From contig NC_010296.1 of assembly GCF_000010625.1 (NCBI RefSeq), positions 2,610,001 to 2,642,000 on the forward strand: a stretch of DNA of 32,000 bases, given 5' to 3'. This DNA comes from Microcystis aeruginosa NIES-843. GTDB lineage: Bacteria > Cyanobacteriota > Cyanobacteriia > Cyanobacteriales > Microcystaceae. The stretch's first letter is position 1; every line of letters starts with the position of its first letter. A model generated the notes under the pieces. It was not told where the DNA came from. It made no database searches and saw nothing but the letters and a program-made list of their open reading frames with translations. Position numbers and translations under genes: made by a program. Below are positions 5,788-31,845 of this stretch, piece after piece.

Positions 5788-7473
5788 ATGGCAGATAACT
5801 ACAGAAGTCGCATTGTTACCCAAGGTACCCAACGCAGTCCTAATCGGGCCATGTTAAGAGCGGTAGGTTTTGGGGATGAGGACTTTAGCAAACCAATCAT
5901 CGGCATCGCTAACGGATTTAGCACCATTACCCCCTGTAACATGGGAATTAATGATTTAGCAATGCGTGCCGAAGCAGCCACGAGATTAGCGGGGGGAATG
6001 CCGCAACTTTTCGGGACTATCACCATTAGTGACGGGATTTCCATGGGAACAGAAGGGATGAAATATTCTCTCGTTTCTAGGGAAGTAATCGCCGATTCCA
6101 TTGAAACCGTCTGTAATGGTCAAAGTCTCGATGGAGTCCTCGCTATCGGGGGTTGTGACAAAAATATGCCGGGGGCAATGATTGCCATGGCCCGGATGAA
6201 TATTCCCGCTATTTTCGTCTATGGTGGCACGATTAAACCGGGGCGCTACAAAGATTGCGATTTAACCGTGGTCAGTTCCTTTGAAGCCGTGGGACAGTAC
6301 AGCGCCGGTAAAATCAGTGAAGAAGACCTCATCGGAATTGAACGCAACGCTTGCCCCGGTGCTGGTTCCTGTGGTGGAATGTTTACTGCTAATACCATGT
6401 CTTCCATTTTTGAAGCCATGGGGATGAGTTTACCCTATTCCTCAACCATGGCCGCCGAAGATGCGGAAAAAGCCGATAGTACCGAAGAATCGGCCAAGGT
6501 TTTGGTCGAGGCGGTTAGAAAACAGATTCTCCCTAGCCAAATTTTGACCCGTAAAGCCTTTGAAAACGCCATTTCGGTAATTATGGCGGTGGGAGGTTCC
6601 ACTAACGCTGTGCTGCACCTTTTAGCCATTTCCCGCACCATCGGGGTAGAATTATCGATCGATGATTTTGAAACCATCCGCCAGCGTGTACCGGTTATCT
6701 GCGATCTTAAACCCTCCGGGCGTTACGTTACCGTGGATCTGCACAAAGCCGGCGGTATTCCCCAAGTGATGAAAATTCTCCTGGTTAATGGTTTACTGCA
6801 CGGGGATGCCCTCACCATTAGCGGTCAGACTATCGCCGAGATTTTAGCCGATATTCCCGACCAACCGCCCTCAGGCCAAGATGTTATCCGTCCTTTTAGC
6901 AATCCTGTCTATAAAGAGGGTCATTTAGCCATTTTAAAAGGAAATCTGGCCACAGAGGGGGCCGTGGCCAAAATTAGCGGCGTGAAAACTCCGGTAATCA
7001 CCGGACCGGCGCGGGTGTTTGAATCGGAAGAAACCTGTTTAGAGGCAATTTTAGCCGGAAAAATTCAAGCCGGGGATGTGGTGGTTGTCCGTTACGAGGG
7101 ACCAGTAGGCGGACCGGGTATGCGGGAAATGTTGGCCCCCACTTCGGCAATTATCGGCGCCGGTTTAGGGGATTCCGTGGGATTAATTACCGATGGTCGT
7201 TTTTCCGGGGGAACCTACGGCATGGTGGTCGGTCACGTCGCTCCAGAAGCGGCGGTGGGTGGTACAATTGCCCTAGTAGAGGAGGGGGATCAAATCACTA
7301 TTGATGCTCGTCAGCGTCTCTTGAGTTTAAATGTATCGGAAGAAGAATTAACCCGTCGTCGTAACCATTGGCAACCGCGCCCCCCACGCTATAAAACGGG
7401 AATTCTCGGCAAATTCGCCAAGTTAGTCTCCTCTAGCAGTCTCGGCGCTTTAACGGATCTGAATCTGTTCTAA
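5788..7473 (+). CDS. ilvD: Dihydroxy-acid dehydratase
   Basis: [28 protein letters not shown]..., CDKNMPG and the full-length IlvD/Edd pattern. The ATG at 5788 is preferred over the upstream in-frame start of the ORF track. Confidence 0.95.
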
Positions 7474-13214: not shown

Positions 13215-13308
13215 TGGTTAGGATAGGAACTCATGCAAGAAGTAGTTATACTAAATCTGGTTATTAAAGACTGATTATTCATTCCCCTTTTTGCATGAGT
13301 GCATGAGT

Positions 13309-28296: not shown

Positions 28297-29736
28297 ATGA
28301 CCACTGGTTTCAACAATTTAGGTTTATCCGATAGCCGTCTTCAACACCTAGAAACGCTTGGATTCACCACCCCCACCGAAATTCAAACCAAAGCCATCCC
28401 TCTCCTTCTAGAAGGGCATGACATGGTAGGAATGTCACAAACGGGAACCGGCAAAACCGCCGCCTATTCCCTGCCTTTACTGGAACGCATGGACACCAAA
28501 AATCCTAACGTTCAAGCTTTAATCCTCACCCCCACCCGGGAATTAGCCCAACAGGTGGCCAGCGCCATCAAAGATTTCTCTGATGATCGTCGTCTCTTTA
28601 TCCTGACAGTCTGTGGTGGTCAATCCATGGAACGTCAGATCCGCAGTCTGGAAAAAGGTGTCCAGATTGTGGTCGGGACTCCCGGCCGGGTAATCGATCT
28701 GCTCGATCGCAAAAAACTCCATCTAGAATCCCTAAACTGGGTAGTCCTCGATGAAGCGGACGAAATGCTCAGTATGGGTTTTATCGATGATGTGAAGAAA
28801 ATTCTGCAAGCATCCCCCTCCACCCGTCAAACCGCCTGTTTCTCGGCAACTATGCCCCGGGAAATCCGCGATTTAATCGCTAATTTCTTGAAATCTCCCA
28901 TTTCTGTGACGGTTTCTCAACCCCAGGCCGCTCCTGCTAAGATTGAGCAGAAAATTTATCTGATCCCTCGCGGTTGGACGAAATTAAAAGTCCTGCAACC
29001 CCTGTTAGAGATCGAACCCCTAGAATCGGCGATTATTTTCGTCCGCACCAAGCAAACCGCGGCCGAATTAACCAGCAAACTGCAAGAAGCGGGGCAAACG
29101 GTGGATGAATACCACGGTAACTTAAGCCAAGTGCAACGGGAACGACTGGTGCAACGTTTCCGCGAGGGCAAAATTAAATTAGTGGTAGCCACGGATATCG
29201 CAGCCCGCGGTCTAGATGTGGAAAATCTCAGCCACGTTATTAACTATGATCTGCCGGATAATGCCGAAACCTATATTCACCGCATTGGCCGCACCGGCCG
29301 CGCCGGTAAAACGGGAACTGCTATATCTTTAGTAGAACCGATCGATCGGCGTTTATTACGTCAGATTGAACAGCGTTTGCGTCAACGTCTGGAATCTAGT
29401 CCCATTCCTAGCCGCACCGAAGTAGAAGCAAAACGCCTGGCCAAGCTGCAAAATCAGCTAAAAGAGGCTTTATCGGGGGAACGTATGGCTTCTTTCTTGC
29501 CTTTAGTGCGGGATTTAAGTGAAGAATACGATCCCCAAGCGATCGCGGCGGCTGCCCTGCAAATGATCTACGATCAAAATTGTCCCCAGTGGATGAAAAC
29601 CGATTGGGAAGTTCCCGCAGCGACGAGCAGTAAACCGGTGATTAATAAAACTCCCCGCAGTGGTGGTAGTAAGTACCCCTCTAAGTCGAATAACCGTCCT
29701 TCCCTGGACAAAAAAATCGTCTTTCAGGAACGTTAA
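28297..29736 (+). CDS. crhR: DEAD-box ATP-dependent RNA helicase (CrhR-like)
   Basis: Q motif FTTPTEIQ, SQTGTGKT, VLDEADEML, SAT and HRIGRTGRAG. It lies 41 nt downstream of rimO, the arrangement known for the Synechocystis rimO-crhR operon. Confidence 0.85.
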   Translation: MTTGFNNLGLSDSRLQHLETLGFTTPTEIQTKAIPLLLEGHDMVGMSQTGTGKTAAYSLPLLERMDTKNPNVQALILTPTRELAQQVASAIKDFSDDRRLFILTVCGGQSMERQIRSLEKGVQIVVGTPGRVIDLLDRKKLHLESLNWVVLDEADEMLSMGFIDDVKKILQASPSTRQTACFSATMPREIRDLIANFLKSPISVTVSQPQAAPAKIEQKIYLIPRGWTKLKVLQPLLEIEPLESAIIFVRTKQTAAELTSKLQEAGQTVDEYHGNLSQVQRERLVQRFREGKIKLVVATDIAARGLDVENLSHVINYDLPDNAETYIHRIGRTGRAGKTGTAISLVEPIDRRLLRQIEQRLRQRLESSPIPSRTEVEAKRLAKLQNQLKEALSGERMASFLPLVRDLSEEYDPQAIAAAALQMIYDQNCPQWMKTDWEVPAATSSKPVINKTPRSGGSKYPSKSNNRPSLDKKIVFQER

Positions 29737-29766: not shown

Positions 29767-29802
29767 GTTGATAGACCGTTTTGGTTCTATCAACTTTTTT
29801 TT
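29767..29802 (+). terminator. Rho-independent terminator of crhR
   Basis: GTTGATAGA-ccgttttggt-TCTATCAAC followed by T8 (29795-29802). Confidence 0.8.
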
Positions 29803-29959
29803 GTCAAGTAATTTCCCAGTACGTCGTCGAAAGCATTCTACATAATTTTATAGCTAAACTTTTGATAATTGATTCTAATCAAGTATTTGGGCTTTGTTTG
29901 ATACTTTTGCTGATAATTACTATATAATTGTCTTAAATGAATAAATTTGAACATTTAAT

Positions 29960-30313
29960 ATGTCGAGTTCGTCAGAACCTTATCGTGGGAGGGTACAAGC
30001 TCAAGGAGACGATATCCAGCAAGAGGGTGGATACAGTTGTTCTTGGGCAAGAAAAAATCCTGTTACTGCTAAAGAAGGATTATCATTTCTTGCTAATATT
30101 AAAGGGCAATGCAGCGAATGTCAACGAGAGGAACGGAAACAAGCGTTTAGAAAAGCTGAACGCTTTGTTACAAATGCTAGTGAGCAAGGTGGTGTCACTC
30201 CAGAGGCACAACCGCACTCATTTCAGGATTCTAAACGTAAAACTAAAAACGCCCGTGTAGATATTGAAATTCGCAGTGGTCTTACCTTTATCCCTTCGCC
30301 CCAAACAGAATGA
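29960..30313 (+). CDS. Hypothetical 117-aa protein (CxxC-containing, basic C-terminal half)
   Basis: Its stop overlaps the next ATG (ATGA at 30310-30313). It is protein-like in composition, contains CSEC, and matches no family I recognise. Confidence 0.5.
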   Translation: MSSSSEPYRGRVQAQGDDIQQEGGYSCSWARKNPVTAKEGLSFLANIKGQCSECQREERKQAFRKAERFVTNASEQGGVTPEAQPHSFQDSKRKTKNARVDIEIRSGLTFIPSPQTE

Positions 30314-31110
30314 CAACGATGCTTAGAAGAGTACAACAATTTTTAGACTCTGGCGATAGTGATAACGCTAGAGAAGAAATTGATAGAGCTTTCGGCAATC
30401 TGAGAAGGGTGGATAGTCATGTTAGAGAGTTTGCAGATCTGTTGGCACTGGGATCGATCAAAGCTTCAGAAATCGGCTTAGGGGTATTGGGACGTAAGCT
30501 TCTACAGAATGACAGCGAGATTAACAATGAGGTTGTTTGGTTATTTATTGCGTCAATTTTATCTCGCAATAGTATTCCCCCTGATAGTCCATCTAGAATC
30601 AGCCTACTTGTTCTTACCGCTTCTGTCAATAGTTGGGAATTACCAATTTTTGCGCTTCTTGCCCCTGCCCTCGACGCTTTTTTTAAAGTTAGTCTTGCGG
30701 ACGGAACCCCTTTAATTGCCGAACAAACTTTTGATTTTTTGGCCACTTGGGGAAGAATTTATGCGAAAGCACCTCATGTCAAAACGCAGCTTCAAGAACT
30801 TCAATCTCTTAGTAATAATCTATTAGAGCAAGTAGATGACTCAGAGTTAAAAGCTGAATGGTCAGAGGGAATTAATATATTTTTTGAAGAAGCCAGGACA
30901 ACCAAATATTCAGATAGTAATGTTTTTTCTGCTGGTGAAGAATTAATTAAAAAAATTTATAATACTCAAAGTTTACAGCGCAATACAGAAGATAAGAATT
31001 TGGCAGAGACAAAAGACAAGTTACTCCGATTAGTCACTTCGTCTCTTGCCACTATTGGAACAGTTCTTGATAGTGATGGAGTCATACTAAATCCGGTTAT
31101 TAAAAACTGA
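30310..31110 (+). CDS. Hypothetical 266-aa, predicted all-helical protein
   Basis: The long ORF is translationally coupled to the 117-aa ORF. No motif recognised. Confidence 0.55.
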   Translation: MTTMLRRVQQFLDSGDSDNAREEIDRAFGNLRRVDSHVREFADLLALGSIKASEIGLGVLGRKLLQNDSEINNEVVWLFIASILSRNSIPPDSPSRISLLVLTASVNSWELPIFALLAPALDAFFKVSLADGTPLIAEQTFDFLATWGRIYAKAPHVKTQLQELQSLSNNLLEQVDDSELKAEWSEGINIFFEEARTTKYSDSNVFSAGEELIKKIYNTQSLQRNTEDKNLAETKDKLLRLVTSSLATIGTVLDSDGVILNPVIKN

Positions 31111-31188
31111 TTATTTATTTCCCCTTTTGTCTCTTGCCTTTTGCCTGTTCTGATATGTAGCGCATACTCAACGGATTTAGTATTAACC

Positions 31189-31845
31189 CTATATACTTTT
31201 GACTTTTTTATACTGTTCCGTCACGGCGGCATTTAATAGATCATCTTTAAAATCTCTGATTAATTTAATTACTAAATTATAAGTATTGATGTATTCTTCA
31301 TAATCGATAGTTAAATACTTGCCATGAGCAATTTTATTTCTTTGGGTGAGAAGTTGTTCATCAATAGCTTTCTGCCGCAGTTGATAATCACTATCATCAA
31401 TTCCTAGAATAGTACAGATATCAGTGAAAACTTCAAAATTGAGATTAGATTTGGTGTTAATAATATTTTCGTAGGGTATAGAAGCTCTATTTTCTAGGTT
31501 ATCAAGTAAATTTTTGATCATCTCTTTTTGTAACTTAAATTTATTGGTTTTTATTAACTCATTTATAGAACTTCTAGAACCAAGGGCAACGAAACAGTAA
31601 TCCAGTTCATGATAATTTAATTTTCTTAAGGAAACAAACTGCAAATAACATTCTGCTGCATATTTAATAAAACCTTCCCAATGGGCATAGAGAGTGGTTA
31701 TTCCGGCTCTAATTAATACATCTTGCTCAGTTCCTTTTTGTGGAGGAATTTTATTTTTTAAAATACTAAGTTCTTTAATTCGCCATGCCATATCTTCATC
31801 TAAGTTTTTCTGGAGAATTTCGATAGTTCTATTATCTTTACTCAT
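31189..31845 (-). CDS. HEPN-domain protein, MAE_28990/MAE_18760-like family (predicted RNase)
   Basis: An Rx4H HEPN motif is seen in LLTQRNKIAHGKYL near the C-terminus of a helical 218-aa protein. The N-terminal pattern WRIKELS...LYAHWEGFIK matches my recollection of that family. Confidence 0.7.
   Translation of the reverse strand: MSKDNRTIEILQKNLDEDMAWRIKELSILKNKIPPQKGTEQDVLIRAGITTLYAHWEGFIKYAAECYLQFVSLRKLNYHELDYCFVALGSRSSINELIKTNKFKLQKEMIKNLLDNLENRASIPYENIINTKSNLNFEVFTDICTILGIDDSDYQLRQKAIDEQLLTQRNKIAHGKYLTIDYEEYINTYNLVIKLIRDFKDDLLNAAVTEQYKKVKSI

Follow-up and report, generated by a model that had tools for sequence, protein, structure and literature searches.

Two overlapping genes lie downstream of crhR in the 32,000-nt stretch of the Microcystis aeruginosa NIES-843 genome that we analysed (NC_010296.1, positions 2,610,001 to 2,642,000 of the forward strand; hereafter the window), and the best-supported reading is that they work like a polymorphic-toxin/immunity pair domesticated as an intracellular toxin-antitoxin (TA) module. 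Gene A (29960–30313, + strand) is a 117-aa open reading frame (ORF), and gene B (30310–31110, + strand) is a 266-aa ORF and a truncated allele of a longer gene; the two are joined by a 4-nt ATGA overlap at 30310–30313, just where a preliminary description of the window, made from the sequence alone, had placed it. On balance we lean towards the view that A-B is a toxin-immunity module similar to type II TA systems, probably acting through abortive infection, and that phages carry its immunity domain as a counter-defence. Loci used for comparison are referred to by number (e.g. L011) where they need to be told apart.

The preliminary description regarded both genes as orphans, and this does not hold. 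A profile of A matches 666 proteins at E≤1e-3 in a search of 1.84 billion representative proteins, with homologues 64–74% identical in Spirulina, Nostoc/Anabaena, Dolichospermum, Coleofasciculus and Floridaenema, and B has more than 120 homologues. Neither A nor the window copy of B has a match among the Pfam, NCBIfam and PADLOC models, and no functional name was obtained from Pfam, NCBIfam, PADLOC or PHROGs for A, for the N-terminal domain of B (B-N) or for the small immunity families described below. There are 30 invariant columns in the A alignment (including R9, G10, Q13, Q15, G16, D18, W29, R59, R99, D101 and E103), and the residues that are invariant family-wide (R9, G10, R11, Q13, Q15, G16, W29, R59, G77/G78, R99, D101, E103, G107 and F110) give the signature hRGRxQxQG…W…R…GG…RVD(I/V)E(I/V)xxGxAF. 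An AlphaFold2 (AF2) model of A, with a predicted local distance difference test score (pLDDT) of 93.6, is a ββ-ααα-ββ domain. A fold search of A against the PDB returned no neighbour (best E 4.6), sequence-profile searches against PDB chains found nothing, and the similarity of the A helices to a profile of ribosomal protein bS20 is insignificant (E 0.18). The invariant Arg, Gln, Asp and Glu residues alternate along β1 and β3 and should therefore line one face of the sheet, which suggests that this face is an enzyme surface or a nucleic-acid/nucleotide-binding surface. The cysteine pair (CSEC) pointed out in the preliminary description is only half conserved; the first Cys (C51) is retained and the second varies, and with a single conserved Cys a zinc/Cys motif is ruled out.

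Relatives of A are also found at the tips of large proteins. Among 140 representatives with a near-complete A domain, the domain lies within 15 residues of the C-terminus in 133, and 36 of the 40 representatives that are at least 200 aa long carry it at the extreme C-terminus. Among the carriers are RHS-repeat proteins 2815, 1766, 1761 and 742 aa long (E 1e-56 to 1e-178 for RHS_repeat), as well as shorter RHS fragments and proteins of the extracellular contractile injection system (eCIS) type with an eCIS_core (DUF4157) domain; the A profile matches RHS proteins with E-values down to 5e-21. In a Chitinophaga locus (L028) the A domain directly follows the RHS core-end motif (…DPNGWADVFGL…), and a metagenome scan with an RHS-type profile recovered fusions in 42 of 80 loci, with DPxGL immediately upstream in 18 of the 80. 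Domains of the A type are thus found as the C-terminal tips of delivery proteins and are bounded by the RHS core-end motif, and we regard the homology of A to the toxin tips of RHS/eCIS proteins as nearly certain. The C-terminal position in RHS and eCIS proteins is the site of the toxic cargo of polymorphic toxins, and because A-type domains occupy it, A is a relative of toxin cargo domains and a putative toxin. A is free-standing in all of the cyanobacterial loci, and in the window it is a stand-alone 117-aa ORF without an N-terminal trafficking, secretion or encapsulation region; it is related to the cargo domain but is not itself a polymorphic toxin.

The downstream partner in other cyanobacteria is ~553–560 aa long, and window B corresponds to its first ~258 residues (51–54% identity). 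Full-length B (558–560 aa) is also common in Microcystis, one version (P0102) being present on 121 contigs, and the 266-aa ORF is not a complete product of its family. The NCBI name for P0102 is 'DUF7226 domain-containing protein', and it scores 33.8 bits against the DUF7226 Pfam model (PF23871; threshold 27); window B has no match to this model because the domain is deleted. Alignment with the full-length allele of Microcystis sp. LSC13-02 (L011) shows the window to be colinear up to 31083 and again from 31185, with ~990 nt of the full-length allele (B residues ~259–560 plus the 3′ untranslated region) swapped for ~100 nt in the window. The segment between the break points (31084–31185, no strand assigned) is a copy of a dispersed Microcystis repeat of ~105 nt, so that codons 1–258 of B (30310–31083) correspond to the N-domain and the last 8 codons and the stop codon are from the inserted repeat. 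The window locus is in this sense a minimal 'toxin + immunity domain' pair, left after the repeat-linked loss of the C-terminal half of B. Further copies of the repeat are at L040 6895–6998, L037 8576–8679 and L012 15267–15180, with a partial copy in the window at 13248–13293; the repeat recurs at other chromosomal sites and is possibly similar to a miniature inverted-repeat transposable element.

An AF2 model of full-length B (pLDDT 84.2) has three domains. The N-domain (residues 1–253) consists of helices only (pLDDT ~90), in agreement with the all-helical character that the preliminary description gave to the 266-aa protein, and it is followed by an α/β middle domain (residues 258–377) and a helical C-domain (residues 419–553) that is DUF7226. 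A Foldseek search of full-length B against the PDB gave nothing significant, the weak top matches being ARM/HEAT α-solenoids, and a fold search against BFVD likewise gave nothing significant. The sole Pfam similarity of helix-turn-helix type, to wHTH-PRTase_assc, is insignificant (E 0.2), and literature searches for DUF7226 and for the phage gene product gp104 (see below) found no paper.

The two genes are closely associated. A search of 185,579 species representatives with exact motif patterns yielded 21 A loci, including those in a deltaproteobacterial metagenome-assembled genome (MAG) and a Chitinophaga MAG, and 20 of the 21 have a B homologue directly downstream. The ATGA overlap is kept in Microcystis, Nostocales, Spirulina, Coleofasciculus and one deltaproteobacterial MAG; as far as gene arrangement alone goes, the pair resembles a type II TA system, with A and B adjacent, co-oriented and ATGA-coupled across orders. 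Of 21 Microcystis loci, 20 have an intact A (117 aa, with no indels), the one exception being a locus with a truncated B allele, and A is under purifying selection, the dN/dS ratio (ω) being 0.1–0.4 for diverged pairs. The departures are asymmetric. We found no locus with an intact A and no B-N, but the opposite case, B-N with A missing or broken, is seen in L014, in L030 and in 41 viral contigs. In L030 a B of 411 aa accompanies a 42-aa remnant of A, and L025 has lost most of B and the 3′ end of A through one deletion. An asymmetry of this kind would be expected of a toxin and its neutraliser, with the putative toxin never persisting without the antitoxin and an orphan antitoxin being tolerated. 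We note that in L014 (8001–8354; the MAG Microcystis aeruginosa W13-11) A has a nonsense codon at position 6 beside an intact truncated B, which is either a real toxin pseudogene or an error in the MAG consensus.

The N-domain is the sole part of B that is kept in the truncated Microcystis alleles, in the 404–416-aa B forms of Nostocales and in phages, and since it is the only part retained in truncated alleles and short forms, it is the likely neutralising part. We therefore think it probable, from these sequence comparisons, that the N-domain of B neutralises A, and the neutralisation presumably involves direct binding of A by B.

Partners of A-type domains in other settings give a further view of B. 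We treated as a candidate partner any same-strand ORF of at least 50 aa with a start between −60 and +300 nt relative to the 3′ end of A, and such an ORF is present in 70 of 80 metagenomic A loci, a cognate downstream gene being a usual feature of polymorphic toxins (for window B the overlap with A is 4 nt). These ORFs form families of 45, 11 and 7 members (the last of ~70 aa) together with seven singletons. The 45-member family ranges from 63 to 216 aa (mostly 94–216 aa), and the Chitinophaga L028 partner joins it by shared motifs (…YNTTFSNGT.FMD.NPIF…); none of the scanned representatives of the 45- and 11-member families is in Pfam. The 11-member family is informative because it unites ~200-aa proteins, among them those that L095 and L160 encode downstream of an A-tipped giant protein, with proteins of 644–679 aa (L119, L132 and L147). 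The ~200-aa proteins align with residues ~45–190 of the long proteins, whose C-termini match the DUF7226 region of B (E 1e-21 to 1e-24), and hhalign aligns cyanobacterial B with the long proteins colinearly over 494 columns (probability 99.1%, E 1.6e-18). In L114 and L159, DUF7226 has an ORF of its own immediately upstream of A, and the parts (A, the helical immunity-type domain and DUF7226) are therefore modular. From these alignments, B is apparently a fusion of a helical immunity-type domain and DUF7226.

B alone matches a phage family, PHROG 38246 (E 2.6e-177), and it is 98.1–98.7% identical at the DNA level to a gene of the Fukuivirus myophages Ma-LMM01 (gp104, 98.7%), MaMV-DC, MaMV-DH01 and the CH/DL isolates. 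The segment in common with these phages (30305–31125, + strand; 98.1–98.7% DNA identity in Ma-LMM01 gp104 and MaMV-DH01) extends from 5 nt upstream of the B ATG to 15 nt past the stop codon, with MaMV-DC and the CH/DL isolates holding shorter parts of it, and A was not found in Fukuivirus phages. The gene is present in these phages as a lone opposite-strand insert in a block with virion structural and tail protein genes. The phage copies share 42 nt past the truncation junction, including the new C-terminal tail (VILNxVIKN and the stop codon), and because these 42 nt belong to the dispersed host repeat, the Fukuivirus gene was copied from a host allele that was already truncated. Transfer from phage to host is ruled out, both because the 42 nt are host repeat and because full-length B is the widespread ancestral form. 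We are therefore highly confident that window B is truncated and that the transfer was from host to phage, the reverse of the phage-derived cassette that had been proposed earlier.

Fukuiviruses are not the only phages with the N-domain. In IMG/VR there are 42 viral contigs with B-N and one with A, and this sole A-bearing contig, a 5-kb fragment with crhR-like sequence, is probably host DNA. Many of the B-N contigs are non-Fukuivirus and siphophage-like, with a tail protein (phrog_4271, E 2e-93), a minor tail protein, a tape-measure/lysin protein and RecT encoded nearby, and they share only small patches with known phages (~860 nt at 80% identity, and a transposase-adjacent stretch). The boundaries of host homology in the siphophage-like contigs are q588–1265, q390–1235 (which includes the 3′ part of A) and q620–1343, and in the Fukuiviruses q610–1385 plus the repeat. 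Each phage lineage holds host sequence that is absent from the other, and at least two separate captures are required. Thirty-six full copies of codons 4–206 from the host and both phage groups contain no indels and no stops, and ω for B-N (mean dN / mean dS) is 0.57 in the host, 0.77 in the myophages and 0.36 in the siphophages. The Ma-LMM01 gene (gp104; NC_008562 96683–97483) is expressed during infection, with log2 FPKM (fragments per kilobase of transcript per million mapped reads) values of 3.6, 3.8, 6.5 and 7.3 at 0, 1, 3 and 6 h; it is among the few Ma-LMM01 genes with a signal at 0 h and has an expression subclass of its own, B3 (PMC5780444, Table S3).

There are two further types of unusual viral or variant B sequences. 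One is a 90.5-kb contig (IMGVR_UViG_3300042486_001390; L051/L075) with B sequence at both ends, where one copy is full length (558 aa) and has host-like downstream sequence that includes a remnant of the HEPN gene discussed below; this may be a phage/host chimeric assembly, or there may be a terminal repeat within B. The other, in some siphophage-like contigs, is an in-frame fusion of B-N to a C-terminal HEAT/PBS-lyase-like tail (…AESLAKIGTETAIPGLLKALSDAEDSVRFSATDAIGKIGS…) at L052 6004–6963 and in L059 (a ~350-aa B variant).

In the model that we favour, A would act as the effector, being a free-standing copy of a polymorphic-toxin cargo domain, and B, ATGA-coupled to it, would be the neutraliser, its α-solenoid-like helical N-domain binding and masking A. 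In the ancestral ~555-aa B, the α/β middle domain and DUF7226 would add a regulatory or sensing role. Infection would lower or inactivate B, such that A would be freed and the cell stopped, and the toxin-less B N-domain of the phage (Ma-LMM01 gp104 and its equivalents) would keep A neutralised. Because two phage lineages took and kept the toxin-less N-domain, an anti-phage abortive-infection role is the simplest account, and the near-identical phage copies suggest an ongoing host-virus arms race. Considered separately, the defence and counter-defence roles are close to evenly balanced, with the balance tipping slightly towards doubt. The more comprehensive proposal is put forward tentatively: that A-B(DUF7226) is an undescribed abortive-infection system with a new toxin fold taken over from polymorphic toxins and a live host-range determinant, that its immunity domain was stolen twice, by Ma-LMM01-type myophages and by an unrelated siphophage group, and that the window allele type was the source for the Ma-LMM01 lineage.

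Several observations weigh against this model. B is unrelated to the partner family most often seen beside RHS-type A tips (45 loci), and the direct profile-profile match of the B N-domain to the stand-alone ~200-aa proteins is weak (E 0.002, probability 14%), so that the link between them is transitive through the long proteins. None of A, B and full-length B has a significant match to the PADLOC-DB 2.0 defence models, and full-length B (~555 aa) is far larger than typical antitoxins. The ω of B-N is fairly high (0.4–0.8) and exceeds 1 in the closest host-phage pair on just 10 substitutions, and in several phage isolates the gene is cut further to ~225 aa, which can be read as decay. Expression of gp104 is below that of its neighbours (PMC5780444). 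Some of its RNA-seq signal, notably that at 0 h, may also be cross-mapping of a host transcript, since the host may carry a gene that is 98–99% identical.

One alternative is that A-B is a selfish module, of the addiction or the toxin-immunity type, that plays no part in phage defence and persists either through the death of cells that lose B or through protection by B against A-type toxins from neighbouring cells; the phage copies would then be hitch-hiking 'morons' acquired by illegitimate recombination and at most mildly useful. The toxin and immunity evidence is the same for this explanation as for the favoured model, and the lack of a PADLOC model match and the relatively high ω of B-N are in keeping with it. 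The Nostocales pair, moreover, is beside alaS and other housekeeping genes, not in an obvious defence island, and polymorphic toxin loci commonly have orphan immunity genes around them. However, acquisition by two unrelated phage lineages with different boundaries, the intact ORF in dozens of contigs and ω values down to 0.36 are poorly explained by hitch-hiking, as is the fact that those phages never carry A. The HEPN/GmrSD_N, HicAB and Uma2 neighbours in Microcystis and Nostocales are also typical of defence/TA islets, and we consider a purely selfish module unlikely.

It is also conceivable, and in our view quite improbable, that B is a sensor or regulator, its N-domain or DUF7226 perceiving a phage cue upon which B releases or activates A. 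The phage N-domain would then be a dominant-negative decoy that titrates the trigger or prevents activation, and the truncated host allele would be crippled or constitutively 'off'. In favour of this are the size and three-domain make-up of B, the existence of DUF7226 as its own gene in some related loci and the retention by phages of the N-domain only; α-solenoids, moreover, are generic protein-recognition scaffolds, and the weak fold matches are to ARM/HEAT proteins. Simple neutralisation nevertheless fits better with the observations that A is never present without B-N and that many strains keep an intact A together with B-N alone, and the ~200-aa relatives of the N-domain are in the classic immunity position downstream of A-tipped giants. 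The remaining explanation is that the pair does ordinary, non-toxic work in the cell, A being for instance a small protein that binds nucleic acid or the ribosome and B its helical partner; the likeness to RHS tips would come from a binding domain put to new use, and the phage copies would be auxiliary genes that modulate host physiology. Strong conservation of A (64–74% across orders) under purifying selection, its synteny downstream of crhR in most Microcystis and the very weak similarity of its helices to bS20 would agree with this. The bS20 match is insignificant, though, the spread is patchy (21 loci in the 185,579 species representatives, and absence from L033), and the domain recurs at the RHS/eCIS cargo position, each time followed by a small cognate ORF, all of which make an ordinary function very unlikely.

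The toxin-immunity interpretation can be placed among known systems. As in polymorphic toxin systems, A is homologous to RHS/eCIS_core tips that follow DPxGL, and B is in the position of the downstream cognate ORF. A differs in that the window protein has 117 aa and no repeat shell, secretion domain or trafficking domain, and for this reason cannot be a delivered inter-bacterial toxin; in addition, the B family (helical N-domain, α/β domain and DUF7226) is far larger than the commonest immunity protein of RHS loci, and the A domain is outside Pfam/NCBIfam and has no fold neighbour in the PDB. With type II TA and abortive-infection systems the pair has in common a coupled two-gene operon, a toxin that is never alone, a tolerated orphan partner, and a patchy accessory distribution among HicAB, Uma2 and HEPN/GmrSD_N genes. 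The order of A and B is, in contrast, toxin first, the putative antitoxin is ~555 aa in its full-length form, it has DUF7226 in place of a known DNA-binding domain, and there is no match to TA or defence models. Full-length Microcystis B passes the threshold for PF23871 (DUF7226) proteins, whereas window B has lost DUF7226 entirely.

Precedents for the phage gene are the DarG-like orphan antitoxins of T4-like phages that act against DarTG1 (PMC11825919) and a vibriophage antitoxin mimic (PMC11481870). Like these, the gp104-type gene is a toxin-less phage homologue of a putative host antitoxin that is kept as a stand-alone, intact ORF. It departs from them in being a very recent copy (98–99% DNA identity) of one host domain and in having been captured at least twice, once demonstrably from an already truncated allele, and its counter-defence role is a proposed one.

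The left edge of the A-B cassette is the intrinsic terminator of crhR, whose stop is at 29736. The terminator (29767–29802, + strand), read directly from the sequence, has a 9-bp stem (GTTGATAGA/TCTATCAAC), a 10-nt loop and a run of eight T residues, and A-B follows it as previously described; our consensus terminator scan did not pick up the hairpin, owing to the long 10-nt loop and low-GC stem. Hits in the promoter/terminator scan were no more numerous than in shuffled sequence. An AT-rich leader of the A-B operon (29803–29959, + strand; 26% GC) contains a candidate promoter read by eye and of low confidence (TTGATA 29898–29903 and TATAAT 29923–29928, + strand, with a 19-nt spacer); the scan admits only 16–18-nt spacers and did not report this pair for that reason. 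The cassette was earlier described as AT-rich and as contrasting in composition with rimO-crhR, and this has not been borne out. The GC contents of A (43.5%) and B (38.3%) are close to that of the whole window (41.4%), which rules out a foreign AT-rich island; the outliers are rimO/crhR (~50%) and the HEPN gene (29.5%), and the sole AT-rich part is the 223-nt crhR-A intergenic leader (26% GC). A second frame at 29937–30260, raised in the preliminary description as one that might prove to be the conserved frame, has no support as a gene, having no conserved homologues and only a chance Pfam match (E 0.06); the frame of A is conserved across phyla instead. We also note a 109-aa antisense ORF inside B (30417–30746, − strand) that is in all host and phage copies and most likely just reflects the conservation of the sense frame of B.

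To the right, 78 nt away and convergent with A-B as originally reported, is a HEPN_RiboL-PSP gene (31189–31845, − strand; Pfam E 2e-42). It is in an operon with a 370-aa GmrSD_N/DUF262 gene that starts past the end of the window (L010 9231–10999). We compared Microcystis contigs that encode either an identical CrhR or a full-length B, and several locus types are present. A is found with full-length B and an intact HEPN/GmrSD_N pair in L035 and L036; with truncated B and an intact pair in the window, L032 and L040; with full-length B and a 42-aa HEPN remnant in L041 and L042; and with truncated B and a HEPN remnant in L037. In L033, both A and B are absent and the HEPN/GmrSD_N pair is intact. 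The HEPN/GmrSD_N pair is itself polymorphic, the 42-aa HEPN remnant being beside a DUF4332 gene in L037, L041 and L042.

The 3′ end of the HEPN gene comes within ~25 nt after the crhR hairpin in L033, and because the two nearly abut, ~29803–31180 as a whole is an indel. A-B is syntenic downstream of crhR in most Microcystis, and the suggestion that the region downstream of crhR is a variable insertion is confirmed by L033, which goes directly from crhR to HEPN. The loop of the L033 hairpin (~5970–6005) is the reverse complement of that in the window (29767–29802), so the whole palindromic hairpin is inverted there; the inverted hairpin is the terminator common to the convergent crhR and HEPN genes.

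The proposal that A-B and the HEPN genes work together as a four-gene locus is not supported. A-B and HEPN/GmrSD_N are recorded in all four presence/absence combinations in Microcystis, and in none of the 16 non-Microcystis loci is a gene of the HEPN or DUF262 type found up to 8 kb from A-B. There is no conserved linkage or co-variation of A-B with the HEPN pair, and on this population and cross-genus evidence we reject a functional coupling of the two. Neighbours of A-B outside Microcystis include alaS, HicAB and Uma2 genes. What stands of the earlier picture of an accessory defence, TA or phage cassette is an accessory, coupled gene pair of TA/defence type with a link to phages; the phage origin, the partnership with HEPN and the distinctive composition do not.

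Microcystis blooms are partly phage-controlled, and Ma-LMM01 is the model phage for Microcystis. To our knowledge, hardly any gene of Ma-LMM01 has an assigned function. The analysis offers a concrete proposed role for gp104, that of a stolen immunity domain aimed at a specific host toxin, together with the host locus that would be its target. A-B is polymorphic among strains, being absent, full-length or truncated, and this could help to explain strain-specific phage susceptibility. More broadly, A represents an unannotated family of toxin-type domains whose fold is predicted with confidence and has no relative of solved structure, and it comes with a set of immunity partners. DUF7226 gains its first functional context, as a module that is fused to, or encoded beside, the putative immunity protein of A-type toxins.

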